From Moniliella sp. 'wahieum' (taxonomy: Eukaryota): DNA of 64,000 bases. The position numbers and the translations under genes are program-made. Under the pieces are notes generated by a model. It did not search any database, was not told where the DNA came from, and saw nothing but the letters and a program-made list of their open reading frames with translations. Location of the stretch: positions 124,001 to 188,000 of the forward strand of contig RSEE01000027.1 of NCBI GenBank assembly GCA_003971905.1, read 5' to 3'. Positions 1-62,260 of the stretch are shown piece after piece (position 1 is the first letter of the stretch; the number at the start of each line of letters is the position of its first letter).

Positions 1-2424
1 GAGACGCAACGCAGTCTATCATCATGGTACCGCAAGCTCACCGGCCTGAAACGCATAATATTAGGAACGGGGGGAAGCAGCAAGGGAAACCGAGGACTGT
101 ATACACAACCACTACAGTGTCTGTAAATTGCTCAGTACGCAGTTGGCTACAGTTCGCACATTCACGGGGTGTGGGTACAACGCGTAGTCAATACTAACGA
201 GACCGGCGTTAAGATATATCTGTACTACAGCTTATTTTGGATTGCGCACCAAGTGGCTAACCTTTTAGCTCAATCCTTCCTGACTACATAGTCGTGTTTG
301 TTGCCTCCCTGTCGCAGTGAATATAGTGGCATGGTATTTTGCGTGAGTTCTGTTACAAAAGGGGCGGGACATACGTATACACCTTCATTAACGTTTAACC
401 TCAGGCTTCAGGTTCAGGCTGAAGCTGAAGCCTCACTACTGGAGTATAATTGTAGTCATCTAAGAGTAAATCGGTTTCCTTTAAGATGTAAGACCCCAGT
501 GAGATCTAATACATCATTAAGTGTTCACATGGTGTGGGTTGTGCGCTTCCCGACACGTTGTTTGCCACGCACGGCCCCATATGCATTCTGAGTATGTTGG
601 ACGTTGGCGTAGAACGTTGAGCGAGGCAAACTCTCACATATATACTCTGCAGGTGAGGGGCGTAGCTTCAATAAGTATATTGCACTCAATGCTGTTGCAA
701 TACGCGGTTGTGGCTCTTCTACCTTGGGGGCTGCGGTCATGAATCGTCCGGATACAGACGATCCCTCAGCTAATCTCGTAAGCAAGAGGGGAAATGAGAC
801 TCTCCAAACCGCGGCTTCTATACTCTCTTTCAAGTATACCCCCGAAAGGTATATGCCGATTCCAATAAGATATCCCACTCAGTAGTCTATTTGCATATGT
901 TTTGGAGAGAGTGAGATCAAAGAGGAAAAAACATGACTCTCTGGAAGTTGCCTGAGGTTGGTAAGGTGGAGCGAACACCCCCCCCTGTCATCGCACATAT
1001 CTTTTCATTGAGTGAGTATATACGTTACTGTGCTGCACATGCGGTTCTTCACGATGAACAGTAGGGCCTCTCGTATACATGCACTAGTCCCCGTCTGGCA
1101 CGAGTTTTTCCGAGCCATGATCATGTTACAGGTTAAATAACAACCACACTCATCTTGATGGCAATGCATAACTCTCGTTGGTTTGGTTGCGGGTCCACTG
1201 TGTTTGCCGCGAGACTCCCTGGCGTCAGAGAAACAAAGATGGAAGTTTCTCCACCATCACTTTTGCGCCACACAGAAGCCCTCTTCGAATGTTTTGGAGT
1301 CTCTGTTCTTGCTTACCACTGGCTCTATCAGGCCTGTATAGAGAACGGTTGTACACGTTTAACGGGGGGACAGTCGGGCGTCAAGCTTCACTTAGGAGGA
1401 CGGTGGAAACGTGTATAAAACTCACAGGAGTCTCTCTCTCCGTGATCGCGCTTTGCACACTTCTCTGAGACCAAGGACAATACTGGAAAAGTAGTCATTG
1501 GGAGGTGTGATGCCCGACGAATTCGTCCTAGCTGGCGGGCGGGCGATAGACGGCGAACCAGACTGGCTGACTGGCTGGCCGCCAGTTAGAGCCCGCGCCA
1601 GCGCCTGTTGCGGCAACTTGGGGAGGATGATCGATGAGGTCGAGGTGGGAGGAACCCCCCAAGCACCATGCATCATCCATCTGTGCATCGCCCTCTGGCC
1701 ATGTGCCCCGCTTCACGCTTCAAGCGTCATCCTTCAAGTCTAGCCATCACGCGTCATGTATCACACATCATCCATTGCGTACGCTGTATCATCGATCCAT
1801 CATCGATCACTCCTTCTCTCCTCACATACTGGAGGGAAGCCGCTCTTCGCAGCTCCAGCTCTTCCAATACCGAATACTGACTAGGGGGCTTCGGCCCTCC
1901 TCCTGACTAGTGGATACGCTGAATTGCGACATGTAGCGGTTGGGTGGGGGGCGCGTCGCTTTGCCTACCATCATCATCAGTGCCACCGCCGGACGCAAGC
2001 ACGCGCATAGCAACGGAAGCGAGCACAACAGCAGGCCACGAAAGAGTTTCTCCCATTTGGTGTGCCGTGTTGCCCTCTCTCCGCAGGCGACCTATCACCA
2101 CAAGACCCTTGGTTTAGGCCGGCTGGCCCATTCTCGCAGCTTCGCTTCGTGTGTGGGAAGCTACCACACCATCTCGTTAAGCTGCCACTGCCACATCCCG
2201 CACCGCTTCTTAGCCTCGCTCTCCTTGGCTCTCGCCTAACCGCCTTCCGTCCCTCTTCCTCTTTCTCAGCCCGCCTCGTTTGGGAACCTCACCACTGTGC
2301 ACAGTGGATTCCCTTGACCCGCTTCCATCGCAATCCTCCCTGCATGCAGTACGGCAGCGAATCCACTCCTCATCATCTGATCACTACCCCTATTGGGCCC
2401 AACGTTACATCTTCCGGGAACGCC

Positions 2425-3777
2425 ATGACCGACGACCCTCGCCGGTTTGAATATCCTAGCGTGGCACGCACGCAGCCGCTACAGCAGTCCCAGCTGTCCG
2501 CCCCCAACTCCTCGGCGCCCTATGGCGTTACCCACTATGCTTCTTCGTCTAGCAGGGCAGGGTACTTTGACTCCAACGGCGCCCACTACTCAGCCACCCA
2601 ACAGGTCCCAGTTGGCCCCGATGGCCGCTTGTTACTTCAGTCGCAAATTTCACCCATTACCCAGACGGGCCAAGCAAGCGGACTTACGATGACTGCGCCA
2701 TCCCCAGCTGCAAACATATCAACAGCTACACAAGCCCAAGGGTCATCTTGGGGCTCTATGACCATGGGTCCAACAGGCGCCGGTACGTTTTGCCCCCTCC
2801 TCTCTTGTCTGCCTTTCGTTCTTTCCTTTGCTCCTGCAGCACAGAAGCTGATTTGTTCCCTGTACCCAGTGACCGGGCTGATTCCTTCCCAAACCAATGC
2901 GCCTCCGCTGGTGGGCGACTCAGGAACAGTGTACCCTCGCCCCCCCTTGGAGGGGATGGTAGGCCACCGCTCCTCTCATTCCACCTTGGGTGAGCGCCCG
3001 TATTCCTCGGAAGACAGTCTGGCCCCAGGATCGGGGCTACGAGCAAGCATCGGGGCGGCAAGTGGGTCGGCTCGCCGGTCCAACGATACGTTGGGTGCCT
3101 CATCCTTGGCCAACAGACACTACCGTGCAAGGTCCTGCGGAACCAGCGCAGTCCACCAGCCTCAATCAGACCTCTCTGTCCCGGAGTGACAGTGATCCGA
3201 GCTCACAAAAAGCCGGCAACGCACCTGTCACTTTGGGTGTGCCCATCTTTGTTGGCGACATTGTCACCCGCACAATCCGCGGGCGACGCAAGCGCCCGAT
3301 TCCCCAAGACCCTAGCAAGCTGACTCAGATCGATGCCCCCATCCCAGCGCGGCGCAAGATGTTCAAAGTGCCGTCCAACCAGGAAAGAGCGAATGAAGAG
3401 GGCGGCAACTCAGACACTGAGAAGGGGGGAATGCAGCTCCAACGCGGGTCGAAGCGCAAGTACAAATCGACCGAGACCGTCGACGCGTTGGAAGCCCAAC
3501 GGATCCGGACACCTTGGCCGCACGGCGCCATCGCCTCCACAAGGCCCAGCAATGGCGGGAGATGCAAGTCCAGCTGGACACGCTTCGAGCTCGGAACCAG
3601 GAGCTGGAAGGATCGTACGCTGGACTCGACATGCAGCGCTTGCGGGACGAGAATGCGAGCTTGCGCCAAAAAGGCGCAGCGCTCGAGTATGAGTTGCATA
3701 TGCTCAGACTTAGAAACCAAAGCCTTCAAGGCGAGCTCAGCCGTTCTTCTGAAGCGCGGCGGAACATGCCATACTAG
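2425..3777 (+). CDS. Putative bZIP transcription factor (Gcn4-like basic region + leucine zipper), frameshifted in assembly
   Basis: ATG at 2425; probable intron 2783-2869 (GTACGT...GCTGAT...CAG); C-terminal QRIR/TLAARRHRLHKAQQWREMQVQLDTLRARNQEL resembles the Gcn4 basic region NTEAARRSRARK followed by heptad leucines (ORFs 2990..3901 and 3514..3777); stop TAG at 3775-3777. Confidence 0.65.
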
Positions 3778-6472: not shown

Positions 6473-6532
6473 CGCAAGAGCAAGAGCAAGAGCAAGAGCA
6501 AGAGCAAGAGCAAGAGCAAGAGCAAGAGCAAG
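6473..6532. repeat. (GCAAGA)n hexanucleotide microsatellite, about 10 copies; poly-G tracts nearby (about 6272-6283 and 6315-6336)
   Basis: Direct reading of sequence. Confidence 0.95.
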
Positions 6533-6545
6533 AAGGGGGCAACGA

Positions 6546-10832: not shown

Positions 10833-13800
10833 GGCCAGGATCAGAAGGGTTACTCAGACGGGCAAGGTGGGCTGGGCGAAAGGCTAAGGACGCAGCGCTG
10901 GGATGCGCCGGGGCGGACGGTGTACAGTCGCAGGGAAGGCACGCGTGGCCTAGAAGGCGGCGGCAGGCGGGACGAGGCGGGATGAAGCAAAGGAGAAAAA
11001 AAGTGAGGGTGGGTGGGTAGGAGGGAGAGATGGCGTAGGCGAGTCCGAGTACCGCTCGAGAATAAGCGTACTCAGTACTCAGATCTCAGACTGAGTACTG
11101 ACTAGCTACGGACTAGTGACTAGTGACTAGACTGAGTGCTGTACTGATGTGCAGGTGGGTGGGTCGGACATACTGACACTGTGCAGCCGAGGCAAGAGGG
11201 GGCAGGTGGGTGGCGCGGCAGCAGCCCAGCAGAAACCGAGAACGGGAGCCACGATGCATGAGCCATGTGCTGAGGCGCTGAGGAACTGCGCTGGCGCTCA
11301 TGCATCATGCACTCATGCACTCATGCTTCAAGTGAAGCTTCAAGCGGGCCGCTGCGACGGGGGCGGCGCAGTGCCTGCGTGTGGCTGGCGAGCCGCAGCA
11401 TGCATGCGATCTGAGAGTTTGCGGCTGCGGTGTGCGGCAACAGACTGGTGCGCTGCCCTCCCGGCTGCTCGCTCGTGGATCGCACCCTACCGACGACCGC
11501 AGCCCCTGCAGAGCGCCAGCTGAAAAAATAACCGTCCGGGGGGGCTGCCTGGTGCTGCGCAAGCCCCAGTGACTAGTGACCCCCTGCGCTGCACAGGATG
11601 GTGCCCGCGACGCCACACGTATCGGCAAGGCCAAGGGCGCCACGCCAGTGCGGTGCGCTTGTCTCCGGTACTTGGCATAGATTGCCCCCCTTTTGCGCCG
11701 CGCTTACCTGTACATCATGCATCACAGCACCATGTCACGCCCACGCCCCATTGCGTCCCATTTCCCACAGTGGGAATGGGACAGGCGCTTGCTGATCGTG
11801 CGCGTGATCGACGATGGCCGATGGTCGATGCTCGGGCCCTTGCCGCCCTTGCTGCAACGGGGCAGTCTTGGGCAGTCTCTCATCGGCATCACACGGTCTG
11901 TTGCACCTCGCACCTCGCATCTCACATCTCACATCACATTCACATTCATCACATCCTCAGGTCGGAAGTAGCCGGTGCGAGTAGGCGATAGGCGGTTGAG
12001 ATCGGGGAGATCTGAGATCTGGGAGCACATAGCCCGAACGCTGGGTTGCAGTCCCAGCACTGGCAACCGGTAACGCGCAAGGCCTAAGGCCTAAGGCCTA
12101 AGGCCTAACGAGACTACCTCCACTGGTCACCTTGTCACGTGTAGACCTGCATCTGCTGTGACATAATTGCGATCCATCATCTCAGATCTCATCCGACTCT
12201 CGTTTTGTGTCTCCGTCGTGGACGGGCTCGATCCTCTGTTGGAATATACATCACCAGCATCTCCTCTCTTCCCTGTCGCCGTCAAGTATGCCACCCGCAC
12301 ACTTTCGGTTGCAACACCTGTCCGGTCGCGTACGCGTCCGCGTCATTGATCATTGCCCTTCAAAACAGATACAGCCCGCTCGACGCGATGATCGCATTGT
12401 CGTGTTTATACACTGCACCACATGCGGCAATGGAAGCCAGAGGCCCAGAGATGGAGGTGCAGGCAGCACGGGGGAATGCAGTCTGGTTACCCGTTACGGG
12501 TTACCTGTGAGGCTCTCTCCACCCCGCATGGACAACACATTTCGTCTCAATCAATCCCTTGCTTTAAGTTTTGTTCCTGTCTTTTCGTCGGCGGCTCTCT
12601 ATAGACACACTGGTACCACACCACACACCTCTGCGACGACGCCAGGGAACCAGCACCCGGAGAATGTCGGGAACCTCCGTTGGGTCTCGGCCTGTCTGAC
12701 TGGTTTCGCGTTGCTAATACACAATGGATGAAGGATCGCCAAACGCGCAGGATTATTCCCCTCATCGGCCTCATCTCTCATGTTCCGGAGCTGTGAAATA
12801 GGTACAGAATACGTTTGGTACACAGATATTGCGAAGAGGGTAGCTGGAACCCTCCCCCGTTTCACTTTGATGCTATATACGATTCTATTCCCCTTTTCAC
12901 TTGTGCGCATATAGCCCTTCCACCGGGAGGTATTTTACACGTTGGTGAGCTCCGCTACGTTGACCACCAGTGGTCAAGAGCCCTTCGGCCCTCACTGACA
13001 CGCGTGGCCCGTGGCCCGATACATAGTGCACCGGGGCAGGAGTCCCGGACCCTCCACGAGCTTCTACTGGCTCTGAGCCCGGTGCCCATCACTGCTCATA
13101 TAGGCCTAGCTCTCCTTCGCTCTGGAATACCACCTCCATTCCCCATCGCCAGCATCGCTAGCTAAGCCCGTGACGGCTGTGTGACTGAGCTGTCGAGGGG
13201 CCCATCTTTCGATACGTGCGGGGCCCGGGACACAACGGAGTATCCCGCGTTAAACGAGGGTTAACCGGTATATATACAATGTGTTTCTATTCGACTGCAC
13301 GTGCAAGCCAAGAGAATCATTGATGGATGTGGCAGCGGTGTGTATATCGCCAAATGACTGGTTGTTGCTAGAGTGCGACTGGGAGCACTCGCGATCCTAT
13401 GGATCAGCTGCAAAGCAGCCTTCGGACAAGGCGTGAAGGCAAATTGGTGGGCCACAAGTCTTCAAGCAACGCCTGACGGGAAGGATAAAGGAGAGAGAGA
13501 AGGGAGATGGAGCGAGCAGGGCGTGAGCGGCCTGCGAGCGGAACTCTTCCGCCTGGCTAAGCGAGCGTCATCGATCCATTGAGGGCTGTGCAGGGGAACT
13601 CGTACTACCCTCTAACAGTCGTGCCTATGCCCTTTGCACTTTGCCATTCCCACAACCTCTTCCATCCATGATGCATGACGCGTATGCGCATAAAAACGGT
13701 GAACGTTACTGTCGCAGTCGGGGCTAAGGCGAGGCAGACCGGAGTCTAGACAGGCCAAGGGGGTGTAGGAAACGTTGGTGGGGAAGAAGTAAGAGTATTT

Positions 13801-16103
13801 ATTAGAGGACTGGTGCGACGCGGAACAACACCGAAGGAGCGAGACGCTCGGGACGAAGAGCTTGGAAATGGGAGCGAGGTCCGCCAAACTATTATGACAG
13901 TACCTTTTGACCGTTGAACGCGGCAGTAGTGCATAATTTTGTAACGCCCAAGGCATACCGTGTAACATAACGCGTATAACGCGTAATATGCACACAAAAC
14001 ACCTGAAACACTCCTGCCGAGAGTCGCCACTTTTTCCTGGGGACGTTTGCCTAGAGCTGTGGTATTTTACAGGCTGCAGCAGTCTGAAGGCGGCTTCAAG
14101 CTTCAAGCTTCATGTGTCATGCATCATGGCTCACGTTGACGCTGTGGGCCGCTGATGCACTGATGGCGCTGATGCACTGATGTAGTATGATGGGAGATGT
14201 GCACTGTAATGCATGTAATGAGTCCATGGCTCGCTCAGCTGCATGTGACAGCGGTTCCAGGGATATAACTCGGGATAGGTGTCCCAGTACGTTTTCCCTA
14301 GAGGTTCTCCACCTCAAAAACAATCCGGTTTTCCCTTTCTCTTCCGGTCTTAGTAACACTTTTTGCTGTCAGCTTGAGCGTCAATACTCAACTTGAGTGT
14401 TGAGCCATTGAAGCGATGAACCTAACGTTGTCAGCATCTGAGTACTCAGCCGCGGAGGGTGACGCTAGTGACACCCACCGATACCACCGATACCACCGAT
14501 ACCTATCGAGAGCGGAAGCATGGATCGGGCGTTGCTGCATTTTTTGCAGCTGTTGTTCCAGAGACGAACGCGCCATCAGCAAGTCGCAAAGTGGCGACGG
14601 GCTGGAATCGCCGGAATCCGCTGCAATCTGATACAGGTCTCAGTCCTTGTTCCTGGATCCTACTAGCTACTCCCCTCCCAACCAGCACGAAACCTGGCGG
14701 CCAATGTGGACCGCGGATTGGCGGATCATCGATCATTAATCGTCTCGATCCATGAATATTGAATGGGGCCAATGGGAACACATGTGGGACTGGCACAGAC
14801 TACCACCTGGCTCGGCTTTAGGGCAAGGATCTGATTGCGAGAGCCGAGCAGCGCTAGCACGTGGGCCGCCAAAAAGCGCCAGCGCTGCTCTCCGCTCCGC
14901 AAGGTACTAGTGGCTATGATAGGCCCAAGACGAGATGATAAATTGGTAGTTATACATGGCATGATGATGATGATGATGGGCCCTCTGCTCGAACCCTGGA
15001 GCATGTGACTGGCCGGATGCCGTGTGCCAGCGACCAGGGTCTTTCGCCCGGCATCTGGCTCGGCAAGGGGGCTTCCACACCGCACACACCGCAGCCTGCC
15101 GAAACTTGCCGATGCGGGCGACCGCGGGCCACTGCACGGGGGGACAGTCAGTGCGCTTGGCGCCCAGGCTGCGCAGCAGCGCTGAGCGCACGCAGCTTGC
15201 GTTCCATTATCGCCTGCTTTTCATGATTGGGCCGAGGCCGAGCGCTGAGCACGGGGCTCTCTGCGAACAGCCCACGCGGCTGCGCAAGGCTGTGCGCACC
15301 GAGGCCAGCCAGAACAGAGGACCACCGTCGATCCTGTCATGTCTTTCTCCTACAGCAGGTGGCCTGCCCAACAGGGGCACCTGCCAGACGCAGATAGCAT
15401 GGGCAAGAGCAGGGAGCGAAAGTGGCAAGGAAGGGAAGGGAGGGAGAGAAGCGCGAGCGGCGCGACAGGGAAGCAGCCAGCAATTTCCGCGGGGGAAGAG
15501 GGTGGGGGTGTGCGTGCGGTTGGACATGGGATGGGCTGCGAGTGGCTGCTGGTTGTGACGTGACGCGTGAGGCCCACGCATGAGTACCAGGGATGGAGTA
15601 CCTGAATGGGGGGAGAGCCGGGCACTGGGGCGCGGAGGCAGACGAGGGCAGGCACGCAGGCGCAGGATGCCGAGGCAGGCTGCTGGGATCCCAGACAAGG
15701 GAGAGCTGCGAGCCCCTGGTATGTGGGGGCGGAGCGAAGACGCTGATAGGGACGGGCGCCGGAGAAGGCTTGGCGTGGCGCCGAGCAGGTGGTGGCATGC
15801 GGGAGCTCGGCAGCGCCTGTGTTGCTCGGTGGGTGCAGTAGCATGCGACCGCAGCCGTCCGAGCCCACGACACTGGCCGGCACCAGCCCACACTCGGCCA
15901 CTGCCCCCCGCTCGCTTGCTCGGCGCTCGAGAGCACGCTGCGGCACTGCGCAGCTGGACTCGGGCCCAGCCGGCAGCGCTGCTATCGGCAGTACACTGTA
16001 CCTGTACAGCAAGCACTCAACCCAGCCCGCGGCTTCGGACGAGCGCTGCCGTCTCTGGTGTGCCTGGCCACAGGGGGGGGTAGCAGGAATGGCCCGCCAT
16101 GCC

Positions 16104-18889: not shown

Positions 18890-19143
18890 GGCGGTGGGGG
18901 GGGCTATCTATATCTAAGACGTGCGGTTGGGGCTTGAGGTCGCATCACGTGAGAAGTGGGTGGGACGGTGGCACGTGAGATCTGAGAGGCGAGGCGGGCG
19001 GAACGGGGCGGCGGAAGACGCAGCAGGAGTACTGACTAGGGCGGCCGCCTGGCTGCACCACCTGGCCCAGGGCGCCCCCAGAAGCAGAAGCGGCGCCACC
19101 AGTCTTCGCCTGCGGCCGACGCCCCCCCCCCGCCCCCTCCGCC

Positions 19144-21939
19144 ATGGCCTCCTTCTTCAGCCAGGTCTCGTCCTTCATCGGCCGCACCAACATCTCCTCC
19201 AACTACACCATCGACGACCACTCTGCCCCCGCCATCGTCGGCCTCTGGAAGGTGTACCGCGGCACCCGCTCCTCTCTGCCAGCGTCGCTGCTGCTGCTGC
19301 TGCCTCGCCTGTCGCCCGCCGCGACGCCAGCATCTGGGTCCACCGCTTCGACAGCTCCCGAGGGCGCGACAAGAGCGCCATCGTCGCCCAGGCACGCAAG
19401 GAAGCCAGTGCGCTCGCGCGCTTGCGCCACCCCTGTGTGCTGGAAGTGATTGAACCGCTGGAGGAAACACGCGCCGAGCTGACGTTTGCGACCGAGCCCA
19501 TTGTAGCGCCCCTGCGCGATGCCCTGGCGCACGACCACCGCGCCGACGTCCAACTGGACGAGGTGGAAATCCAAAAGGGCCTCCTCACCGTCGCGCGCGC
19601 ACTTGACTTTCTCCACCAGGCCAACATGGTCCATGGCAACCTGACCCCCGATGCCGTGCTGATCAATGCCAAGGGCGACTGGAAACTGGCTGGGTTTGGA
19701 TTTTTGACACCGCTCCAGCAACCGGACGGGTCCGCCACGCCTTGGTCCTTCCCCGAATACGATGCTTCCCTCCCCTCGGCGCTGAGCCGGGACTGGGATT
19801 ACCTGGCGCCCGAGTATGCGCTGGACGAGCAACTGCTGCCGGCCAACGACCTCTACTCTCTGGGCTGCATGGTGTACGCAGCCAACTCCAAGGGGAGCCG
19901 CCGTTCCGAAATGGGCATTCGGCCATCACGCTCCGGCAGCACGCCGATGCCATCACGGCCCAGCTTCATTCCACGGCCTGGTCCCGCCTGGGCCGGGATT
20001 TGATCGATCTGCTGGCCGGGCTGCTGACACGGTATCCAGGCAGTCGCTTGACCGCCGCGCAGTTCCAAGCTAGCAATTACTTCAACAACCTCGTGTCCAC
20101 ACTCAAGTTTATGGAACGCGACTCGTTTGCCGGGCGGCAAAAGAGGAGCGAGTGTCGTTTCTCAAGGGTTGCTTAAGGTGCTCCCGCAATTCTCCGATCG
20201 CTTGCTCCGACGAAAAGTGATGCCGGCGCTGTTGGAGTTGATGTCAGACCGATCTCTTTTGCCCTTTGTCTTGCCCAACATCTTTTTTATTAGCAAGAAC
20301 CTGTCCCTCATTGAGTTCCAGACCAACGTTCTCCCCAAGCTCGAACCCCTCTTTGTTCTTGCCGACCCGCCGCAAAACCAACGTACGTGCTCCTCTTTTT
20401 TTTCTTTCCCCTCCCCCCCCCCTTTCACTTCCATCTTTCTTTGGTCCCTTTCTGTATACTAAGCCCACACATCCATCTCACCCTTTTTCCCTTTAGTTTT
20501 GCTGATCGACGAGATTGATTTTTGTGGCCAAGACCAGCCCGGAAGCGTTCCGGACGAACGTGACGCCGCTCCTGTACGCCGGTTTGGAAAACGAGAGCGC
20601 GACGGTGCAAGAGCGTGCGCTGTCGGTGCTACCGCGGTTGTTGGAAGTACTTGGGTTTGCCCATGTCAAGGACACATCCTTCCCCGCGTTGCCCAACTCT
20701 TTTCCCGCACCAAAGTGCTCAGCGTCAAATGCAAAACCTTGGTTGCGTTCCATGCGATGGTTGATACCCTGGACCGATACACACTCACCGAGAAGCTCGT
20801 CCCGCTCCTGGCGCGCATCAAGACCAAGGAGCCGTCGGTGATGATGTCCTCGTTGACGGTTTATGTCGCGATGGCAGCCAAGGTCGATCGGGAGACGCTG
20901 GGCGCAGCGGTGCTGCCCCAACTGTGGATGATGGCCATGACGCCCTTGCTGAGTGCCGACCAGTTTACCGAGTTTATGACTGCGATCCAGGAGATGGGCG
21001 AGCGCGTCCGTCGCGAGCAACTCGCCCATCTGCGCGACATGAAACGCATGCAGGACCATACCGAGAGTTACGTTGCAGGCGGAACAGCCGGCGCGCCCAG
21101 CGCACCGAGCGGCGGCGAGGTGGACTTTGCCACCTTGGTCGGCTCGGGCGGGAGCGGGGGGACGAGCTCCGAGCCGCTCGATGGCTTGTCCGCCCGCGCC
21201 CCAGCTACCATCACCCCGACCCTCACCCCGTCCCTCACCCCGTCCCACACGGGATCCCCGCGTTCTTGACGCCCACCGCGACGGGTACCAGCACGGGGGG
21301 ATCATCGGCGGCGCCTCTCCAGCGTTGGTTCGGGGATCAACTCGTTTACGCCTCCCTTGGCTCCCTCGGCGCCGCCCGCACGCGCTCGGGCCGCCGCCCC
21401 TCCCACCCAGCGCCCGGTGCGTATGCAGTCCACGCCGTCTAGCAACACTCCCGCCCCTGCTCCTGCTCCTGCTCCTGCTACTGCCGCGTCCCTTTTCCTC
21501 GCTTCGCAGCACCCTTCCACCCTTCGCCCCTTGGCTCGCCCTCGCCAGCCCCCTTGTCCGGCACGCTGTCCGTAGCAGGCATGGGCGCGTCGTTGCCTCC
21601 CCTCACACCTACCACCAGCTCGCTGGGCCCGATATCCTCGTCGTTTTCTACGCCCGTACCGCCCTCGAGCTCTGCGTCGGGCATGGCGAGCATGGGCATG
21701 GGCATGGGCATGGGCACGGGAAGGGAAGGGGAACGGGAACGGGTATGGGAACGGGTATGGGAACGGGTATGGGAACGGGTATGAGTATGGGCATGCTCGC
21801 TCCCTCCCCGCCGCCGGCCCAGCACGCCTCGCGCGCCAGCTCGCCCGCCTGGTCTGGCGGCGTCTTGACGCCTTCCAAGCCGCCCCAGCCTTCCCGCCCG
21901 CAAGCCAATGCGTGGGCGGACTTTGATCCGCTCAAGTGA
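19144..21939 (+). CDS. SCY1: SCY1-like (SCYL2/Scy1/Ppk32) pseudokinase with HEAT repeats
   Basis: LARLRHPCVLEVIEPLEETRAELTFATEP, LDEVEIQKGLL, FLHQANMVHGNLTPDAVLINAKGDWKLAGFGF, DYLAPEYALDE; C-terminal WADFDPLK; intron about 20383-20496 (GTACGT...TAG). Confidence 0.92.
21690..21792 (+). repeat. Coding (ATGGGC)n and (ATGGGAACGGGT)n repeats giving MG/MGTG runs in the SCY1 tail
   Basis: Direct reading of sequence. Confidence 0.85.
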
Positions 21940-44237: not shown

Positions 44238-46162
44238 TTCATCATGATGGTATTATACACTTACGGATCTGGGGTGGTGGGTAACCCAGTCTATGTTTCC
44301 CCGGCCGCTGGGAACATGCCAACATCGTACAGAATGTCAGATTCACTCTGTGCTAGGCTTGGCCCACTAGACCCGTATGAGCCCCTAGGTTGTGATTGCT
44401 ATCAGTTGGGAGATCTTGCGTTCACATTCACCTCTCAGCTGTGCCCCTTCCTTCTGCGGTGCTACATCTGAACTTCTAGTCCGTCCATAAGTCCATGATG
44501 TTTGCAATATCCAACTGCTTCCCTTTCCTCTACCTCACGTTTCCTGACACAGAAGCATAGCTGATGGGAGCGTGTCCCTGTGCTCCTTCGATGATCGCGC
44601 CCGGTGAGATAGGCTGTGTGCGCAAGAAGAGGATGGGGTGAATGGAGGGGGCGTTTGGAAGTCGAGCGATTCCATGTATGCATGTCTCGTATAGAGCGCT
44701 CCCGTTCAACACGGCGCACCAGTCTTATCAGCTTCATGCCACAGAATACGCATCCATTGAGCCCCAAACATCTTGGAACCTTGGGTTCTTCGCGGATTTC
44801 GCTGTTTAGTATAGCATAGCAACGTCGAAAAAAACGCATTTTGTGGGAACAGGACCGCCCCCCGCGTCGGTGTGCAGGTGTGTGACGCTACACTGGTGTA
44901 GTGGCGCCGGCGGCCCAAGTCCGGAACCTTCGAGTTCATTTCTTGCAATATTCCTTGGCGGGCAGGAATATTCTCTAGCCTCTTGCACACACCATCATCT
45001 GTCTGGTCGCGTGTCTTTCACAATGGATTCACCTGTGACGAGCGGGGGAGTCGTCGCACGGTAACCGACCGTAAGAAGACAGCACTGGGCTGAGGCGCTG
45101 AGGGTAATACAATGCTAGGCCAAAAAAGCTCTGTGTATAATAATTGTGCGAGGCGCCGGCCCCGTTCCGCTTCTGTTCCGCTCCTTCCTGTTCCGCCTCC
45201 GGCTGCCTTCCCCTGATTGCATCCACATCACCTCTTCACCTGCCTTGCTCGCCTGCCACTGCCACATAACATAAGAGGAGGTGCCCTGTGTACTGTGGGA
45301 CGGAAACAAGTCAGGATAGGTCACCTAATCTTTCAGAGTGCACGAATAGCGAGCAACAGCGAGCAAGGTCGGCTTCGCGACCGCCTTGATCAAAGCCATG
45401 TTCGCGGCCAGTGGTTACCTGGTTACGCATTACGCGTTCAGTGCTACATGCATGACATCACACATCACACACATCACAATACACTGGAACGGTCTGAGAT
45501 CTGAGACTGGAGTTCTGACATGGCAGAACATAAGACCTGAGGTCAGGAGATCTGAGACCTGGGGTCAGCTAAGGCGCTGAGGCGCTGGGGCGCTGAGGTC
45601 ACCGGTCAGGCCAGGCCCAGGTCTCATGATCTCATCGATCACATCATACCACACACATCACGCATCGTCGGCCACCCTAGTCACCGCGTCACCGGCCAGA
45701 CAACCAGGACCGAAGGCGCCCCTAAAATTATAAAAGGCCAGAGGCCTATAACCTGTAACATGTAACAGGGCCTAAGGCCTAATGCATAATGCAAAACTAG
45801 CCTAACTAGAGCAACAGCTACCTGGACCCCTTCTGAGTGGGGCCTGATACACGAGGGCTGGTAGATGCATTATCGATCCTTGATCGATGCCTGAACGTCC
45901 TGAACGTCCTGAAATCGGCTGGTCTCCATCACAGTCAACGTCAACGATGCGAAGTGCCAAGTGGACCCATCTAAGTGTCTGAGCCCCAAGTTGATGGCGA
46001 TTGCGTTTGCTCCCACACCTCGCTACCCTGTTCTGTATCTCCTCTTAGATCTAGATCTTAATTACACACTTCCCGTGCCACTTCTTGAACTCCTCCCAAA
46101 CAACGATTGTGAATATTAAATTGCCGGCAAGTTGGTCAAGCTACGGCAAAAACACTCAACCC

Positions 46163-49680: not shown

Positions 49681-52249
49681 AGGGCCTATAAAGCCTAACA
49701 AGAGCTCAAGCCCTAATAAGCCCTACGCGCTAAGCCTCTGCCATGTACTAGCTCTGCCTGGTCCAACTTCGGAGAGCTTTAGCGCTAAGCTTTTAGCGCT
49801 TAGCTAAGCCTTGACGCTGTTTTTGATTTGAAGCTGCTTGATGCTTGATGAGCTTGATGCTTGATGCTTGAAGCTTGAAGCCTCTTGGCCTCAAGCTCCT
49901 GAAGCCGGAGGAGGAGGCTGATCCTCAGCCAACCTCGTTGCCAGACCTGCGTTCTCTAGAACGCCTCTCTAAACACGCAACTCTCCATCACCCAAGCAAA
50001 TTAACGCGGGGAACTCAGCTTGTTCCCCGTTACGCGTTCCGGTTACAAGGGGTTACGCGTGTTATGCACGCTCCATGCACCATGCTACCATGCTATATGC
50101 GACGCGCCCAGCTGCGTTGAAAACTGTGAATCAACTTTACAACCATTTACTACAATGTTTTAGGCCTTAGGCCTTGGGTTCCAAGAGGTTCAACACTGCG
50201 TTCAACTGAGCGGTTAAAAGCTCGCGTTCAAGCTTTTCAGCTTCAAAAGGTACTTCTTATACTGGAGGCACTGTGCTGCCGGTCCTAGGTACTTAAGAAC
50301 GGAATGTTGAACACTGGTGCCGGGTGGGCAATGCAGCAATGCGTGTACCGCTTTTGATTGTTACCTGTTATACTTTGGCACTTCATATAACCACAGCACA
50401 GCAAAAATGAAAAAGGCGCCATGGACCACGCACACTCTCTCTGACACGCCGTCTCTACGCTATAGAGGAGGGCTAGTAGTAGATAGTAACTAGTAAGGCC
50501 TAAGGGCAGGTCCAGCGGTAAGAAAAAGCGAGAATCGATCATCAATCATTAATCAGCCCCATAACGTTTTGCGTTTAACATCGAGGAGCGGGGGTTGACC
50601 ACGTTGACCGGTGATCGATGATCCGAGGCTATTGGATGGCGAGTGTTGCGGGCTGGCAGTTTGTTTGTTTGAATGACTTGAGTTGATACTGAAACAACCA
50701 CGTCGGACCGAGGCGCCGAGGCCCGAGGAAAGCTAGTACTAGTGACTAGTGACTAGTAGCTGCTAAGTAACTAACTCGCAAAAGAGCCGTTTTCTACTCC
50801 ACTAGCCACTCCCGCTGTTGGCTTGGCAGATGGTGCATGATGTGCATGATGCATGATGCATGAGATCGAGAGCAGAATGATAGCGATGCCACGTGTCCAT
50901 GTCAGTAGCTATTTGCAAATTGCACTATTCATCACGCATCAGACGTCACATCAGATCTCAGATCTCAGATAGGTCTTTCCCATCGTGTTCACCTGCATGT
51001 CACACTCATCCAGCTGCCAAATGAGCTAACTTTGCCAGAAGCCCCAGGTACCCGTTGCACGTAGACGGTGGCCAGTTCGAAGCTTGAAGAGCTGAAGCTA
51101 GCTTAAATTTTAACGCTTAATCGATAATCAGTACTCAGTACGTTCAGTAACTAGTAAACGTCTAAGTACGTTAACGTTGACGTTGTTAACATTGTTCACT
51201 GAAGATTGAGCACGTTCAACTCTTCAACGTATTCGGTCCTTGGACCGTCCACAGTCGGTCCTCAGGTTCTCAGGACCATCCATACTTGGTACTTGGTATC
51301 AAATCGGTACCGAACCGTTCCAGCAATGTTCTCGGCTGCCGATGGTGCAGCACTGTCAAGGAACGCCCTCGGTGTCACGGGCGGGCGCCGCCAGGGGGCC
51401 CGCCCTGGGGGTTTTTGGGGTACAATCCCTTAGGAGACGGAAGGTCGACTCACGGTAGTTTCGGGCTTGGGCTGGTTGGTGTGTCCGAGCGGAGCTAGGG
51501 ACAAGGAGAGGCCTTTGGTGGGGCGGCTGCAGGTGTGGCAAGGCTGCGTCTACACCGGCTTGGGCCGTAGTAACGTGTCTGAAGCTCCGGGACTTAGGGA
51601 CGGAGGAGGCAGCGGCGGACAAACACTGCCTTAACTGAGACGGGAATCGCCGCGACCGAAGGAGGGCTCGCGCGATTGGACTGACGAAGGGCTGGAGGAC
51701 GAGGTCGGAGGAGAAGTCGGACGCTAACAAGAGAAGCTGCCTGTACTGGATAAATTGGCTGGGAACGGCAGGGGTCGGACAGGATAGGCGGGAAAGGGAC
51801 GAAAGTAGAGACGAGAAAGGACGAGAATGGAAGGTGGGGGAAAAGATCCCATCAACCAGGGGTACAGGCAGGATCAAAAGGGAAACGGGTACAAGAGGGG
51901 GTGTAGAAAGGAAGACATGTCAAAAGCGGGGTTGGTCGCCGCAGGCGCGACCGAGAAAGGAAAAGGAAACGGGGACGAGGCGGCAGACGCCGCACGGCAT
52001 TGGAAGCTCGGGGCCTTATTTAGGCCGGCCGACGTGGACTGGGCGGGAGGCGACTGTTGTCGCGCTGAGCATGGCCCTCGGCCACGATACTTAATTTAGC
52101 CAACCATCATCACAATCGGTTGGCCTGCGGAGCACGCTCTACTGGGCCTGTGCGGAGCAGACGGGCCTCAGCTTCGGTCGGACCATCTCGTGTCCGCCGC
52201 AGCCCGTGACACTCGGCGTTCGGCGTCACGCGTGCAACGAGGTAGTCGG

Positions 52250-52850
52250 AGTAATTAGCTTTTACACGTTTACGTCGTTTAACGTTTAACCGACAGGGTG
52301 CAGCACTACTGCCTGCTTCACAGCTTCGAGCTTCACTTCAAGCTTCAAGCTCTTCAAGCTGCAGCCGCTGAGGTTCGGCTCGGCTCAGCTAATGCACTAA
52401 TGCTTAGTGACCGTGACCGGTGACCGGCGACCGGTGACCAATGCTAATTGTCACGCGTCACGCGTCACATATCACACGCTAAGCATTCGCAATCGTAAAG
52501 CTAACCAGCGTAAAGCTAACCAGCGTAAAGCTTAAAGCTTAAAGCTAGAAAGCTTAACGCCGCGAGGAATGATCGATGGATCGATGATCGATGGTCTCGA
52601 TAATCGATACTCGATAATCGAAGTCGCTAATCATTATCACCAGCAAAGCTCAAAGGAGGGCGGCTCGCTCAGTGCGCTCAGTCCGTTCAGTGTTGTTCAG
52701 TGGTTCAGTGCTGAGGTACTGAGTACTGACCCGTGGTCGCTTGAAGATTGATCGGTGATCAAGCGTGACGCGTGACGCGTAACGCGTAACGTTACTAGTC
52801 ACTTGTCGCGGCCACTGGTCAATAGTCACCGGTCACCAGTCATCAGTGGT
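52250..52850. repeat. Densest array of 7-bp nnTNAnn tandem/palindromic units (see findings)
   Basis: CTTCAAG-CTTCAAG-CT-CTTCAAG, (TGACCGG)n, (TCACGCG)n, (TAAAGCT)n, TGATCGA, TGAGTACTGA, (TGACGCG)2TAACGCGTAA, TCACCGGTCACCAGTCA. Confidence 0.85.
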
Positions 52851-53060
52851 CTCTCCGCCGGCCGTCACGCTCACGCTTTGCGGTTGACGCACTCGTGTTG
52901 CCACTACGTCGCATAATCCACCAGGCCTCTACGGCGTTGGGGTGGTCGGTCTCCCAAGGGAAAATTTCCAGCTTTCTACCGCCCACTCGCTGGTGCATCC
53001 GCTACCACCACCACTTCGCCCTTGCCGCCCCCTCCACCGCTGTCAACACACCGCGCTCCG

Positions 53061-54583
53061 ATGCCCGAACCTGTCCTTCAGAGCAGCTGGCAAGGCTATG
53101 CCGCCACTACCCAGGACGCTCTCCTCCTCTTCGAGGCCGCAAAGCGGGGCCACATACCCAAGGTGCACCGTCGCCTCAAGCAAGACGAGCGCAAACGCCT
53201 TATCCGCAGTGGCCAGATCTTTGTTTTGACGAGCGCCAGAGTGGCATCAAGCGCTGGACCGATGGCCTCTTTTGGAGTCCGAGCCGCATTCTCAACAACT
53301 TCCTCGTTTACCGTCAAATGAACCGCCGCGCCCCGAACGATGCTTCTTCGTTCCCGTTCATCAATGATCCCTCCTCCCGTCCAAACGCAACCAATTCAGA
53401 TGGCGTTCCATCCCCCGCCGAGCTTGAACTTCAAGCGGCGCGTGACCGCTCCACCAGTCTTGACTCTGGCCTGCCGCCATCCAAGCAGGCTCCCCTGCCT
53501 TCTCGCGTCCTGCTGCCCAGCGGCGCAAGTCGGAGCTGCAGCGCAAGATGGTCGGAAATCTGCATAGCTCGCATCCTTTTGTTGAAAATGGTCTATGCAA
53601 AAAGGTGAGTTCTTGGCTCGAAATGCTCTCTTGAATCCCGCTACTGACGGAAAGCTCCACCAGACCATCTCAATCGAGGTTGATGGCACAACTCACCACT
53701 TGATCTCTTACTATTCATTGGAAGATGTGAGCAGCGGAAAGTTGCGTTCGCCCTCGTCCATGCCCGAGTTTTTCTCGCTCACTATATCGCCCATGTTTCT
53801 AAACGAGAAACACTTTCGTGTGCCCCCGCGCATTGAGGTTGATAGCAACGGAATTCCTCGCTATCGGGGCGAAGGCAGCGATCTGATGCAAAGACGGCCC
53901 TTATTCCCGCGTCTCTCACCTCGTCTGCGTTCTCATCGAGCTCGGGCAAAGCATCTCTGAATCCACCTAGCTCTGTGAATGCCCCCCTCATGGCCGATTC
54001 GTCTCTGCCTACGGGACCTCCTATCTCCTATCGTGTTCCTTCCGCGATGGTTTTAGACACTCTCCCGACCCAAGGCCGAACCCTCTCCCAGTCTCACACT
54101 CGTGGGCTCCCGCGTACTCTTCCCATCTACTCGCTTCCCCGCGTCCATCTAAGCCCATCCGCGCCGTCTCGCAGTCAGGTACTTCAGGCTCTTTGGGCGG
54201 AGAGGAAAGTTACTACGCCCGCTCTTCGCGACGTGTATCGCCCTACCCTACACTTCCTCCTCCGTCACGCTGGGCGCCCCCTTACAATCCTAACCCACAT
54301 CGCCCCACCCCTATACCGTCTTCTGCGCAAATGCTTCGCAGGGCCCATATATGCCAACTCTCCCACCCTTACACCGCGCGCGTCCCGTGCATTCCACTTT
54401 ACCACCTCCTCCCGACTTGGGGGTTTCGAACCTTATGGCTACCTTACCGAACGGCCTCCGCATTCCGTTCCCCCACCGGCGCCTCCGTTTGTCTCCAGTA
54501 CCCCACCTCCGCCTCACTCTGCCACTCCACCTCCGCTTCCACGCGACGATGTGCCTCACGCTTGGGCGTATGCTCAATATTAA
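53061..54583 (+). CDS. Gti1/Pac2 (WOPR) family transcription factor, Wor1/Gti1/Ros1-type
   Basis: WOPRa: WQGYAATTQDALLLFEAAKRG..RRL..ER..IRSGQIFVFDERQSGIKRWTDGLFWSPSRILNNFLVYR; WOPRb: GLCKKTISI..HHLISYYSLEDV..L.SPS; intron 53605-53663 (GTGAGT...CTGAC...CAG). 3' end approximate. Confidence 0.9.
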
Positions 54584-57665: not shown

Positions 57666-60600
57666 CAAAGCCGGGGGGCAGACCGACGAATAATCTGACG
57701 AATGCTCCACAGCCCTTGTGTTGGAGGCGAGCAGTGAAATTGGCGAGGTTGGAAGCTAGAAGTTGGGGGCTCCCATGGGGCCTGAGATGGCGTAGCTGAA
57801 CATTCATTGCAAGTATAACACATGTACGGGGACGATACGCAGTGTGCATGGATGGTGATGGATGCCCATGACTGTCTGGGCTGAAAGGATGGGAGTTGGG
57901 AAGAGATAGGCGTGGTTCGTAGAGAAAACATTGACGTCGATGATGACGTCGATGTCATGTTGGGCTGGGCAATGGCGCAGCTCTGCGAGAAAATCAGGGG
58001 CTATAGGTAGGGCTGCGATCTGCGATGGTCTGGATCAAAGATCAACCTGATTGCTGAGCTCCAGTGCCCCATCATGCATCATGCATCACTCTCCATGCCA
58101 TGACCCGGTCCGATCAGAGCTGGAGGTGACTGAGAGCCTGCAAACCATACGGGTTGTGGCTCAAGTTGAGCTCCAACATCGTCAAGGAGAGGATGAAGAC
58201 GAGGGAACGATGACGAGTGCGAAAGAAATAATAGGAGCGGCACTGACACCATTGGATGAAGGTGGATTCCGGGCAATTCTTGGTGGGGTGTGGGATGCTT
58301 TCGATCGATGCGTCGAAGAGGGGATAAAGGCGATCGATAGCGGAACCGATATTGAAGAAAGTTAGTTGATTCAGTCTTTTTCTGCTCGGGCGAGAGGCAG
58401 TAGTTGTGCTTGCCTTGGACACAGGACATTTGGCTGGTATAACTCAAAAGAATGGCTCGGCTCCTCGTTTTTCAGAGCTGTTGCACGTAACCGTAACAGA
58501 GGTCAAAAAGGGTCAGATTGACACCAAGGGAAAGCCACAGAATGATGAGCGTTTGAGCTCTGTGTCCATATTGTCTAACGTCACTTGCTGGTGTCGGCAA
58601 AACGAGACGTTGAAGGTTGACAATGTTGACAAGTTGACATGTGCATGCTCAAGGGACGCATTTTGTCCAGGATTATATAGCTCTTTGGCCCTTCTCCACG
58701 AAAAGGCCACAGGCATGTCGTGGGAGAGAGGAGAGGGAAGAGCCACACCGGTGACCTACCACTGCATCCTGTCATGTTCAAGCGAGGGGGGTAGGCACAT
58801 CGGAGCGCATCAGGTGCTGATGAGCATCGACCGCAGTGGTAGCCGATGGGACGAACATACAACACGGGTAACTGGTAAAATAGTTATTGCATGGATGTCA
58901 TCGATAGTGACCTTACTACTAAGGAGTGATTAGTGACTAGTGATTAGTGGTCGCGGATCATCGATTACTCCAGTAGAGCACATTCTGACACTCTGCGCCC
59001 TCGATATGCCAGGCGCTCGCACGCCACACGGATGCCATCGATGGATGAGGCTTCGCATTGGGTCGTCCAGCGGGCGCCCAAAATGGAGCCAAGGCCGCCT
59101 ACGTACATCTGTGCCCGCCGGCTCTTGCAGCTTGGCGAATGCGGAGAATGATTAATGAAGCGTTTGAAGCTTATCAGAATAAGCTTGCAGCGTGCTTCGG
59201 AAGCTTGAAGCTTGAAGCTTGAATCATATCTAGGCTGTGGAGCCCCGCTCGGGCCTGGGGAGGGTACCTGTGGGGGCACACGTTACGGCGATATGCATTA
59301 GTCGTTATCGGGCGGGGTCGGAACGGCCGGGACGCATCATTGGGACTTGGCGTATAGGAAGGGCGGGGAAAAGCTGGAAGGCAGAGCAAGGACGACACGT
59401 ATTATGTTGTGACAAGGGTGGGACACAACATGCAAACAGGTCTCCCCGTGGGATGAATTGCGCAGGGTCCACGGGTGGCGCCGGGTAGCTCTTGTCTATA
59501 GTTTAGTTTAGTGGGGGAGCCAGGGTTCGTGTGGGTCTTGCTGCGTTGCCTATGACAAAAACAACTGCGCAATCCATCACGTTCTGCGGGGGGCCGTGTG
59601 ACGCGTGAGGAACCTGAGTGGGGGTTACGTGTTACGCAATTGGGCCAGGGATTCTTTGGTCTATACTACTCTCAGGAGTATACTCCGCACTGATGTACTG
59701 ATGCAATCACTTTCAAGCATCAAGAAGAGTCCAATCCAAGCCCAAAAGGCGTTTCAAAGACGGGTCTATCATCCCAGGGTTGCTACCACGGTTTGCGTGA
59801 AAAGCGACTACGTAGCTCAGCTAACTCTGATGGGTGTTTGATGATAACGCGTAACGGTGGGTATATTAGTAGACCGGAGGGCCCAAGCTCTCGGGAGCAA
59901 AGCCTTTTGGGCATGCAATGCAATGCAGCCGACGGTGGTTGAAGCTTGAAGCTTGAAGTGTTGAGATCTAATTAAGGCTCTCATGATCTCATGCACCATG
60001 TGCATCACGGCACGCCACTTAGGAAAAGACAGGGGTTCGAAAAGAGGCCCCGTTGTACTCACGTGTATTAAGAGGTCAAAGAAGGGGAGAGGATAGTCGA
60101 TAGATGGGTATACGAGTGCTGTGAAGAGAGCGCTGATGCATGATAGGGAGTCTGAACATCTGAGTGCTAATGTTGAATGCTACTGTGCTGAAGCGGCGAG
60201 CAGGATGCTGATTCGCTTTGATGGAGAACACTCCTCGGTACGTTGGGCGTCACATGTGGGGGTCGGATGAGAGACGTCCCAAGGAAGGGTGGAGATGCAT
60301 GGCATCCGAGAGGAGATATGGCTGAAGCGTTTGTGGTATGCTCTGTTTTAGGCACCTTGACCTTTTCCCGGGAGTATATATATACGGTGCGATCTCCTGA
60401 GATCATCGATCAGACCTTGGCCGAAAGGAGCGCGAATTATGAATCGAACATGGCTATCCGTCTGCATCAACCCACAACCATCCTGAATTATCAATTACAG
60501 TCCAAAACCGCAACGATGGAGCGGCTGTTGTGGCCGAAGCGAAGGAAGGATGATTCATTAGATTGATCAATGTGTTTTTGGCTAGGTTCTAGGGATCTGG

Positions 60601-62260
60601 GAGGTACGTGGTTACATGGTTACAACGGTGAAAGGCTGGCGTGGAGGGGGGATGCGTGGGATTTCGCATGCAGCATGACAAAAAGTCTCTGCGAAGCGGC
60701 GTGCTTAGAATGAAACTTTTGATGGTGGAAGATGGGGTTGGATACTGGGGCCACCGTGAGAGTCGGGCCGAATAGGCTGCTCGTGGCAAAGTATCCAACA
60801 GGGTGGCGAGCTGAGCGCGCTGAGTAACCGAGGACCGGGCGTAGGCCGTCGACACCAACCAAACTTCGCGGCCGCAAAACACGCCGGGGTAAGCGCTAGG
60901 CCCTGGAAGCCAACCGAGGCCGCACCGAGGCCGCACGAATGGCGTCCCTGACCGGTTACCTCACCGGTGATTGGGTGACCGGTCTCCTGCGGTGACCAGT
61001 GACTACTGTGTTATAGTACAGTAGCAGTACCGACTTCAAGCTTCAACGTTCAACGGAGTCGTGACTTCAAGCTACCCTAGTTACTAGTTACTAGTGATTA
61101 ATGATGATCGATTAGTGGCTTCAAGCTTCAAGAGCTTCAAGCTTCACTAGCACTAGTGCTAATGACTAGTGAGAGCTAGTGAGGCCGAGAAGAAGCAAGT
61201 CAGCTAGTCAGATAGGGAGGATTTGACGAGATCAGTACTAGGTTCCTGTGGCCATCAACGAACAGTCGTTAGGCTTTTTAGGCCTTGGGGTTCCAGCGCC
61301 CAGCTCCAGCATTATAGAAGAGCTGAGCCGCTGATGCAGATGTGTGATGGCGTGGACGTGTCCGCGGTACCGCTGGTAATCACCGGCTTCAGGGCCCACA
61401 CGCTCACGGGAAGGCGCGGCAAGTTGTGGAAGGTTTTTAGCTGAAGACCTAAAAAAACTAACGCCGGACTACTAGTAACTAGAAGTAGTAACTGCCGAGG
61501 GGCCGGTAAGCCGGGTGGAGGGCCTGCTGCGAGGCAAGGCTTTCGTGACGGAGCGAGGAGGCGGTGGCGGGAATCGGGAAGAAGGGTGCGTGGCGGCTGG
61601 CTGGTGCGCTGGACGAGCACGGGGGCGGACTGAGTTGGCGAGGGGATGGCTGGAGGCTATTGGATACGGGATGGCGCTGCGATGGGGACGTGTGCGCTGT
61701 GACATGTGACCGGTGACCGGTGACATCACGTCGGGCAGCACCACGTGACACTGTGACGCGGCAGACACATGGCAGATCGAGGGCAGGGCGGAGGATGATA
61801 TCACCGCTCGACCAGAGATCATCGAACATGCATGCATGCCCGCCGTGCTTCCGCTGCATGCGATGCGGGCGGGCGGCGGGCAGGGGGCAGTGGGGGGCGG
61901 GAAAAAAAGGAGGGAAATGCTGGGGTTGGGTGCTGCTGGCTGGTGCCGCCTGGGGCTGGCCAGGGCGGCGTGCGGCCTGACGCCTGACGCTTGAGGCAGC
62001 GCAGCACAGCAGCCGACCGCCCGTGGCTAGTGGCTGGCGCCGGGCGCCCGGGCGGCTGGCGGCTAATAGCACGCGGCTGCCAACTGCGCTTTTCCCCAAA
62101 CCACCATCCGAACGACACCCACGCCCAGAAGCAGCCACCCCAGGCCCCGCCCCGCCCCGCCTCGCCGCCCACACCGTCCGCCCCGCCGCCCACACCGTCC
62201 GCCCCCCTCACCCCCCCCCACCGCCACCGCCACCTCCATCGCGCCCTCACCCGCACCCCT

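Follow-up and report, generated by a model that had tools for sequence, protein, structure and literature searches.

Tandem TNA units with flank-derived palindromes in a Moniliella contig as probable excision footprints of a cut-and-paste transposon

What kind of process could write a fixed geometry into intergenic DNA while the sequence itself changes from site to site? The question is raised by a 64,000-base stretch of contig RSEE01000027.1 from Moniliella sp. 'wahieum' (positions 124,001 to 188,000; hereafter the window), in which triplets of the form T-any base-A (TNA) recur at an exact spacing of 7 bp, separated by self-complementary tetramers (pal4). Perfect TNA-pal4-TNA units number 96 across positions 385..61730; they form 77 arrays, of which 60 hold one unit, 15 hold two and 2 hold three. 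We consider it probable that these units are the accumulated excision footprints (scars) of a cut-and-paste transposon, each made up of a 7-bp target-site duplication and palindromic (P) nucleotides. The source may also be not one transposon but a few related ones. An initial annotation of the window had described the geometry and stated that no described system explains the pattern. That last statement has to be given up, since the anatomy matches cut-and-paste excision footprints in its 7-bp duplication, its flank-built palindrome and its 8- and 9-base variants.

Fixed geometry, variable sequence

The arrays on which the text draws are given below. Flanking dinucleotides are in lower case and set off by a hyphen; spacers that are not palindromic are also in lower case.

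14096..14133: six TCA at 7-bp spacing, ct-TCA AGCT TCA AGCT TCA tgtg TCA TGCA TCA tggc TCA
11072..11088: two-tetramer array, ac-TCA GTAC TCA GATC TCA-ga
12085..12108: four TAA, cc-TAA GGCC TAA GGCC TAA GGCC TAA, with the tetramer from the left flank cc
45773..45789: array with one tetramer per flank, cc-TAA GGCC TAA TGCA TAA-tg
50487..50503: array with one tetramer per flank, ag-TAA CTAG TAA GGCC TAA-gg
61036..61052: array with one tetramer per flank, ct-TCA AGCT TCA ACGT TCA-ac
61700..61723: four TGA, tg-TGA CATG TGA CCGG TGA CCGG TGA-ca
1747..1770: partly decayed array, TCA CGCG TCA tgta TCA caca TCA
18976..18985: single scar, cg-TGA GATC TGA-ga, with GATC from the right flank ga

All coordinates cited in the initial annotation are correct (14096-14133, 61700-61723, 1713-1736, 1747-1770 and 18976-18985). 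The unit it had placed in a short promoter at about 18974 is present as TGA GATC TGA at 18976-18985, where a short intergenic stretch precedes a protein-kinase open reading frame (ORF). Close to the partly decayed array lies another TCA series (1713-1736), in which the spacers are not palindromic.

Counts of TNA-N4-TNA were compared with 100 simulated sequences for each of three Markov orders (1, 3 and 5). As the initial annotation had predicted, such units are enriched over background: with the same central base in both triplets there are 169 in the window, compared to 32.3, 26.8 and 27.7 expected, and those with a palindromic spacer number 96, compared to 1.8, 1.7 and 5.8 (maxima 6, 6 and 13). 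Pairs of triplets that differ in the central base are found 64 times against approximately 62 expected. Since these pairs are at background, the central base must be copied and not merely tolerated. The predicted autocorrelation of TNA positions was also recovered, with a peak at distance 7 (233 vs 83 in one order-3 simulation) and shoulders at 8 and 9 (119 and 127 vs 82 and 101 in the same simulation).

Both the triplet and the spacer are specific. Palindromic spacers occur 96 times between T.A triplets and 2-14 times in each of the other 15 X.Y triplet classes. When the spacer length was varied, only a length of 4 was enriched (169 pairs, 96 palindromic); lengths of 3, 5 and 6 gave 55, 55 and 66 pairs, with 0, 0 and 3 palindromic. 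Fifteen of the 16 possible palindromic tetramers are present as spacers. For hexamer palindromes, with expectations drawn from 40 simulations per Markov order, the A....T class is found 334 times (169-178 expected, standard deviation 12), and the C-, G- and T-initial classes show no enrichment (290, 330 and 164 vs 324-338, 355 and 165-178). Tandem Repeats Finder independently reports many period-7 arrays of 2-6 copies with a unit consisting of TNA and a palindrome.

These counts uphold much of what had been claimed for the window, namely that the excess is confined to A....T palindromes, that most of the A....T palindromes are used, and that the pattern is neither one satellite nor one binding motif, the geometry being fixed and the sequence variable across 15 tetramers. 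They also support the claim that a sequence-generating process acts at nnTNAnn sites, as seen in the T.A, 4-base-spacer and A....T specificity within the window.

In a separate scan for hexamer palindromes, A is the first base in 59/64 forward-strand hits, and T precedes 49 of those 59. We also considered a 4-bp duplication with three P nucleotides as the elementary event and rejected it (T stands before the first NA in 49/59 forward and 54/62 reverse hits).

A rough codon-usage classifier, trained on ORFs with Pfam support, divides the window into 24.9 kb of coding-like and 39.1 kb of non-coding-like DNA. By this rough measure 92/96 perfect units lie in non-coding-like and 4/96 in coding-like DNA, so the scarcity in coding sequence that had been noted by eye is real. 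Within non-coding DNA the scars are over-dispersed (variance 2.54, mean 0.95 over 78 bins of 500 nt), and they are most densely clustered in two long stretches, one upstream of the Gti1/Pac2-family ORF and one upstream of the AreA-like ORF. The hot regions are as follows.

About 11000-12200: hot region containing the array at 11072..11088
49700..52900: hot region upstream of a Gti1/Pac2-family ORF (52826-53608, + strand)
58900..61750: hot region, followed downstream by an ORF (61988-63175, + strand) with an AreA-type GATA-like domain

Bins spanning 50001-53000 account for 26 of the 96 perfect units, with arrays at 50605, 50847, 50951, 52451, 52526 and 52759 among others; arrays in 58900..61750 include those at 59206, 59940, 61036, 61081 and 61700. 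Open chromatin, local hopping or the mere length of these regions may account for the clustering.

Flank-derived palindromes and a duplicated site of 7 bp

The duplication length, the origin of the palindromes in the flanks, the variant classes and the T.A specificity can all be read directly from the sequence. We write the site as ab-TNA-cd, so that a tetramer built from the left flank is b'a'ab and one built from the right flank is cdd'c'. The outer half of the tetramer equals the adjacent flank dinucleotide (the flank rule) on at least one side in 60/77 arrays: on both sides in 17, on the left only in 24, on the right only in 19 and on neither side in 17. Controls with shifted flanks fit in 7/77 and 6/77 arrays.

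Individual arrays illustrate the rule. At 14096..14133 the first tetramer extends the left flank ct by its inverse complement. At 11072..11088 GTAC comes from the left flank ac and GATC from the right flank ga. At 61700..61723 the left flank matches the first tetramer and the right flank does not match the last. Within an array the TNA triplet is constant while the tetramer may switch, as in GTAC to GATC, GGCC to TGCA and CTAG to GGCC. Where two different tetramers are present, each fits its own flank in 4/6 arrays; among the multi-unit arrays, 11/17 repeat a single tetramer.

The boundary of the duplicated sequence is equally well defined. Period-7 identity past the terminal TNA is bimodal, ending at 0 or exactly 2 nt (counts for extensions of 0-6 nt: 31, 10, 22, 3, 7, 3 and 1 on the right; 28, 8, 20, 9, 6, 3 and 3 on the left), which makes a satellite of arbitrary phase an unsuitable description. 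The same site emerged when TNA was not presupposed. When 5-mers of any sequence were sought in two copies separated by a 2-nt inverse-complement filler, 153 hits were obtained vs approximately 9 expected; T is the first base in 111 of these and A the third base in 118. When site length (L) and P length were varied together, the count peaked at L=7, with 97 vs 10.2 expected at P=2. The full 12-base pattern TNAcd-d'c'-TNAcd was found 103 times on either strand compared to 0.3 expected, and patterns with one violation 137 times compared to 7.8. The ratio of one-violation to perfect patterns gives, as a crude estimate, a mean decay under roughly 9% per site.

Two further spacing classes show the same anatomy. 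In the P-type period-9 class, two whole nnTNAnn 7-mers are joined by two P nucleotides, as in CTTCAAG-CT-CTTCAAG. This class is found 10 times with TNA central, compared to 0.05 expected, and TNA is central in 10/14 P-type period-9 repeats compared to 4/92 repeats with other filler. As both copies of the 7-mer are complete, the duplicated unit is fixed at 7 bp. In the period-8 class, 17/55 TNA-N5-TNA units hold a 4-base palindrome and one extra base; when the rows were read by eye, palindrome and extra base were as the flanks predict in most of these 17.

52343..52358: period-9 example, CTTCAAG, then CT (two P nucleotides), then CTTCAAG
5574, 12760, 14205, 45890, 49844, 50594, 50836, 52667 and 61126: starts of period-9 units
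14153..14163: period-8 example, gc-TGA TGCA C TGA-tg, the right-flank palindrome and one base kept from the second copy of the site

Excision of a transposon and competing explanations

These features could be produced by the following series of events. Integration with a 7-base stagger centred on T-N-A (ab-TNA-cd) would leave the 7-mer duplicated on both sides of the element. On excision, the transposase would leave covalently closed hairpins on both flanks, closed exactly at the site boundary, and a nuclease of the host (Pso2/Snm1, related to Artemis, in fungi) would open them 2 nt 3' of the tip. Each opened end would then be duplex through TNA and carry a self-complementary 4-nt 3' overhang, cd-d'c' on one side and b'a'-ab on the other. 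End joining with the usual 4-nt overlap would give TNA-pal4-TNA at period 7, in which the sequence of one overhang survives; overlaps of 3 and 2 nt would give periods 8 and 9. The scar would regenerate TNA sites, one of them within a perfect 7-base palindrome, and further rounds of insertion and excision, perhaps assisted by slippage, would extend the arrays. Re-insertion into scars would keep TNA constant and limit each array to no more than two types of tetramer, one for each original flank. Because a 7-bp insertion would shift the reading frame, scars would persist only outside coding sequence, giving the depletion in coding DNA. The transposon, the hairpins and the enzymes are what we infer from the scars.

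Several steps in this series have precedent in published work. Flank hairpins are documented for hAT, Transib, MULE and RAG (PMC5499845), and Ac/Ds footprints in yeasts consist of deletions and P-nucleotide palindromes (PMC5873905). Artemis opens hairpins mainly at +2, so that 4-nt 3' inverted-repeat overhangs predominate (PMC2175297), and yeast Pso2, which is needed once Ac/Ds has excised, cuts by preference 2 nt away from the apex (PMC3299998). The hairpin, opening and P-nucleotide steps that we propose are therefore supported by published data on hAT, Transib, MULE and RAG, on Artemis and on Pso2. Among transposons of Basidiomycota, 7-bp duplications are described for hAT7 of Pucciniales (rusts) and for Kyakuja, a KDZ group of Agaricomycotina (mushrooms) (PMC12730594). 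Kyakuja is defined in the same source by a 7-bp duplication, CA..TG termini and a KDZ transposase; the 7-bp length matches that of the duplication in the window. The scars of Ac/Ds in plants, S. cerevisiae and C. albicans are, in these accounts, explained like ours by flank hairpins, their opening and end joining, dependent on Pso2 in yeast. They differ in having an 8-bp duplication, compared to 7 bp centred on TNA here, and in palindromes that have the complement of the element-adjacent base at their centre, compared to even palindromes centred on the site boundary here. Consistent with this difference, our period-8 spacers are a 4-base palindrome and one base and do not have the Ac/Ds-type form xyNy'x'. 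Furthermore, unlike Ac/Ds, one outcome dominates in the window and the scars have accumulated into arrays.

hAT elements generate 8-bp duplications with the consensus nTnnnnAn, and the hAT5, hAT6 and hAT7 groups generate duplications of 5-7 bp. The hAT superfamily belongs to the group with flank hairpins, and the 7-bp length of the hAT7 duplication agrees with ours; the nnTNAnn site is not the 8-bp hAT consensus. The chemistry suggested by the scars looks nearer to RAG/Transib than to classical hAT. In V(D)J coding joints, formed by RAG hairpins and Artemis:DNA-PKcs, the hairpin is closed exactly at the boundary, opened mainly at +2 and gives 4-nt 3' overhangs in which 2 flank bases are joined to their inverse complement (PMC2175297), and the palindromes in the window have the same size and structure. 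V(D)J recombination differs in being a programmed somatic reaction of vertebrates without a target-site duplication; its coding joints mostly lose P nucleotides (PMC2175297), while those in the window are mostly kept.

Tc1/mariner elements also leave short palindrome-like scars between the copies of a duplicated site, in their case TA. The inner bases of these scars are remnants of the element's ends and do not vary between sites. In the window, by contrast, the inner bases are derived from the host flank and vary by site. No published account of genome-wide 7-bp TNA-centred footprint arrays was found in the full texts searched.

Several observations weigh against a transposon as the source, or against details of the proposed series. 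None of the 123 window ORFs of at least 150 aa contains a transposase domain, and a search of the window for inverted-repeat elements flanked by a duplicated TNA or 7-mer found none. Inverted repeats of at least 9 bases flanked by the same 3-mer form 60 pairs, of which 2 are flanked by TNA, neither convincing; 7-mer direct repeats around inverted ends form 33 pairs, of which 3 are centred on TNA, 2 of those inside scar arrays. What we say of insertion and excision at this locus is thus deduced from scars in the window. A period-11 joint, with the two palindromes side by side and no overlap of the overhangs, was found in 0/30 cases. Neither flank fits in 17/77 arrays, and the flank rule is also obeyed by 45/117 units with non-TNA triplets. 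Finally, even palindromes with their centre at the boundary do not fit, in detail, hAT chemistry of the Ac/Ds type, the best-studied among families with hairpins.

The non-TNA units that obey the rule consist of a triplet, cd-d'c', the triplet again and cd, with triplets including GAA, CGT, CTT, CCA, CGA, CAA, GTT and GGA.

10482, 13003, 13632, 50073, 50717, 50799, 52644, 59624, 61293 and 63774: positions of examples of non-TNA units

Read by eye, many of them look like the same process at half-sites (CNA or TNG; CCA, CAA, GGA, TTG and TGG), which suggests that the T/A preference is strong and not absolute. Part of them may belong to the general background of tandem repeats, which is high in the window. 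Among the non-TNA units that obey the rule, matches are to the right flank in 28 and to the left flank in 12.

The explanation that best survives beside transposon excision is a host process without a mobile element, in which a nuclease, for example a domesticated transposase, introduces staggered breaks at TNA in open chromatin, and hairpin formation and rejoining with duplication follow. It would account for some 100 scars in 64 kb that hold no element, and for their strong clustering in long regions upstream of regulator genes. However, we know of no such host system that gives a fixed 7-bp duplication, a feature characteristic of the staggered strand transfer of integrating elements. Cut-and-paste elements of low copy number could leave far more scars than copies, and local hopping combined with a preference for open chromatin would also cluster the scars. 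We therefore regard an element-free host process as unlikely, although it is the strongest of the competitors.

Replication slippage or unequal exchange could amplify existing 7-bp palindromic units in the manner of a minisatellite or microsatellite, and the window is indeed rich in short tandem repeats with periods of 5-10. Arrays that repeat one tetramer (11/17 of the multi-unit arrays) could arise in this way. However, slippage copies whole 7-nt units without a preferred phase, and the repeats described here end at TNA or exactly 2 nt past it. One-sided units share merely 5 nt and a 2-nt inverse-complement filler, adjacent units carry unrelated palindromes that each fit their own flank, and both the T.A specificity and the period-9 class are left unexplained. 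Slippage already fails as the primary origin of the units, and we rate it as improbable overall.

Footprints of PIF/Harbinger or CACTA elements, in which TNA would be a 3-bp duplication and the tetramer 2+2 bases of the element termini, match the spacing with their 3-bp duplication and 4-base self-complementary remnant. They are nevertheless very improbable: the tetramer follows the host flank and not the element (60/77 arrays), 15 different tetramers occur, and the duplication reaches 2 nt to either side of TNA and hence is not 3 bp long. Equally implausible is an assembly or base-calling artefact, which would neither follow the complement of the flank nor avoid coding DNA, or a selected cis-regulatory code of transcription-factor site arrays, for which 15 tetramers and any central base would be unexpected even though the densest regions lie upstream of two regulator genes.

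Returning to transposon excision, the window holds approximately 100 perfect 7-bp units in approximately 39 kb of non-coding-like sequence, and the genome would probably carry thousands of such scars. As to the identity of the source, we tentatively suggest a basidiomycete lineage of transposons not yet described, or a host nuclease derived from a transposase, with RAG/Transib-like boundary hairpins and a 7-bp TNA-centred stagger. Such a source would leave orders of magnitude more footprints than it has copies, and these would make up a measurable part of promoter DNA. We hold this to be less likely than not in its specifics.

Surrounding genes, metagenome matches and significance

The window has a guanine plus cytosine (GC) content of 59.2%. 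Domains identified in its ORFs are fungal and include SLA1 SHD1, Gti1/Pac2, AreA-type GATA-like, protein O-mannosyltransferase and M48 peptidase domains; SacI, RSE1/DDB1/CPSF1 propeller, protein kinase and GH30 domains are also present. For the ORF with the SacI domain, the nearest named protein is from Acaromyces ingoldii (65% identity), followed by those of other basidiomycetes. By its genes alone the window is therefore nuclear DNA from a basidiomycete, probably within Ustilaginomycotina or close to it, and the collection searched contained no near relative. Rfam and tRNA scans of the window found two tRNA genes alone, without any connection to the scars.

27776-27847, - strand: tRNA-Ala gene, anticodon AGC (Rfam and ARAGORN)
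32249-32328, + strand: tRNA gene (Rfam; not called by ARAGORN), which may contain an intron

Short tandem repeats with periods of 5-10 and without the TNA signature are in excess across the window. Period-6 runs of 5 number 118 compared to 42 expected, and those of period 8 number 90 compared to 44.

6474-6533: tandem repeat without TNA signature, GCAAGA x10
22576-22693: tandem repeat without TNA signature, AGGCTAGG x14.8
21692-21795 and 23043-23134: tandem repeats without TNA signature

For signs of the pattern elsewhere, metagenomes were scanned with TNAAGCTTNAAGCTTNAAGCT, which contains three AGCT units, giving at least 120 loci. The top matches listed are AT-rich satellites, and none among the matches listed has other tetramers at a density like that of the window. 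Thirteen loci (77 kb) share a record-name prefix.

L008, L011, L015, L017, L023, L041, L053, L055, L059, L078, L087, L100 and L107: loci of this subgroup, which carry TNA-AGCT arrays

The subgroup contains 5 further full-pattern clusters compared to 0.8 expected, and 53 other loci with a GC fraction of 0.45-0.65 contain 8 compared to 5.1 expected. In the subgroup the flank rule holds for 38/38 TNA-pal4-TNA units, most of them ascertained seeds. Extra units that obey it are tc-TCA GATC TCA, gt-TAA ACGT TAA, TGA GGCC TGA-gg and cg-TGA CGCG TGA. One locus, L053, carries genes for mitofilin, Maf1 and a dynamin of MGM1 type (86% identity to a Thelephora terrestris protein), and on these proteins its source is an Agaricomycete-like fungus. 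There is thus a hint, from loci that were chosen for carrying an array, that the same process acts at lower density in other basidiomycetes.

Two loci with 300-base flanks hold short arrays in which the tetramer switches, while TNA stays constant in the first and changes in the second. At about 300-345, L110 reads TGA AGCT x3 followed by TGA ATAT TGA-at, and at about 300-345 L100 reads TCA AGCT x2 followed by TTA TCGA x2.

If the units are excision footprints, four properties of an unseen element and its host could be read from sequence alone: the site is 7 bp long, T-N-A is preferred at its centre, cleavage leaves flank hairpins that close at the boundary, and the host opens these at +2. Excision scars, usually deemed rare single events, could then be among the main forces shaping the intergenic sequence of a compact fungal genome. 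They would build arrays of short palindromes, including many hexamers that resemble restriction sites, in long stretches upstream of regulator genes, and so provide an ongoing supply of short palindromic repeats in regulatory regions. The arrays would also be a natural in vivo record of +2 hairpin opening and of end-joining choices in a fungus. The signature is computable in other genomes, as X7 followed by the inverse complement of its last 2 bases and by X7 minus its first 2 bases. The metagenome signs, weak as they are, would if true make the process widespread in Basidiomycota.

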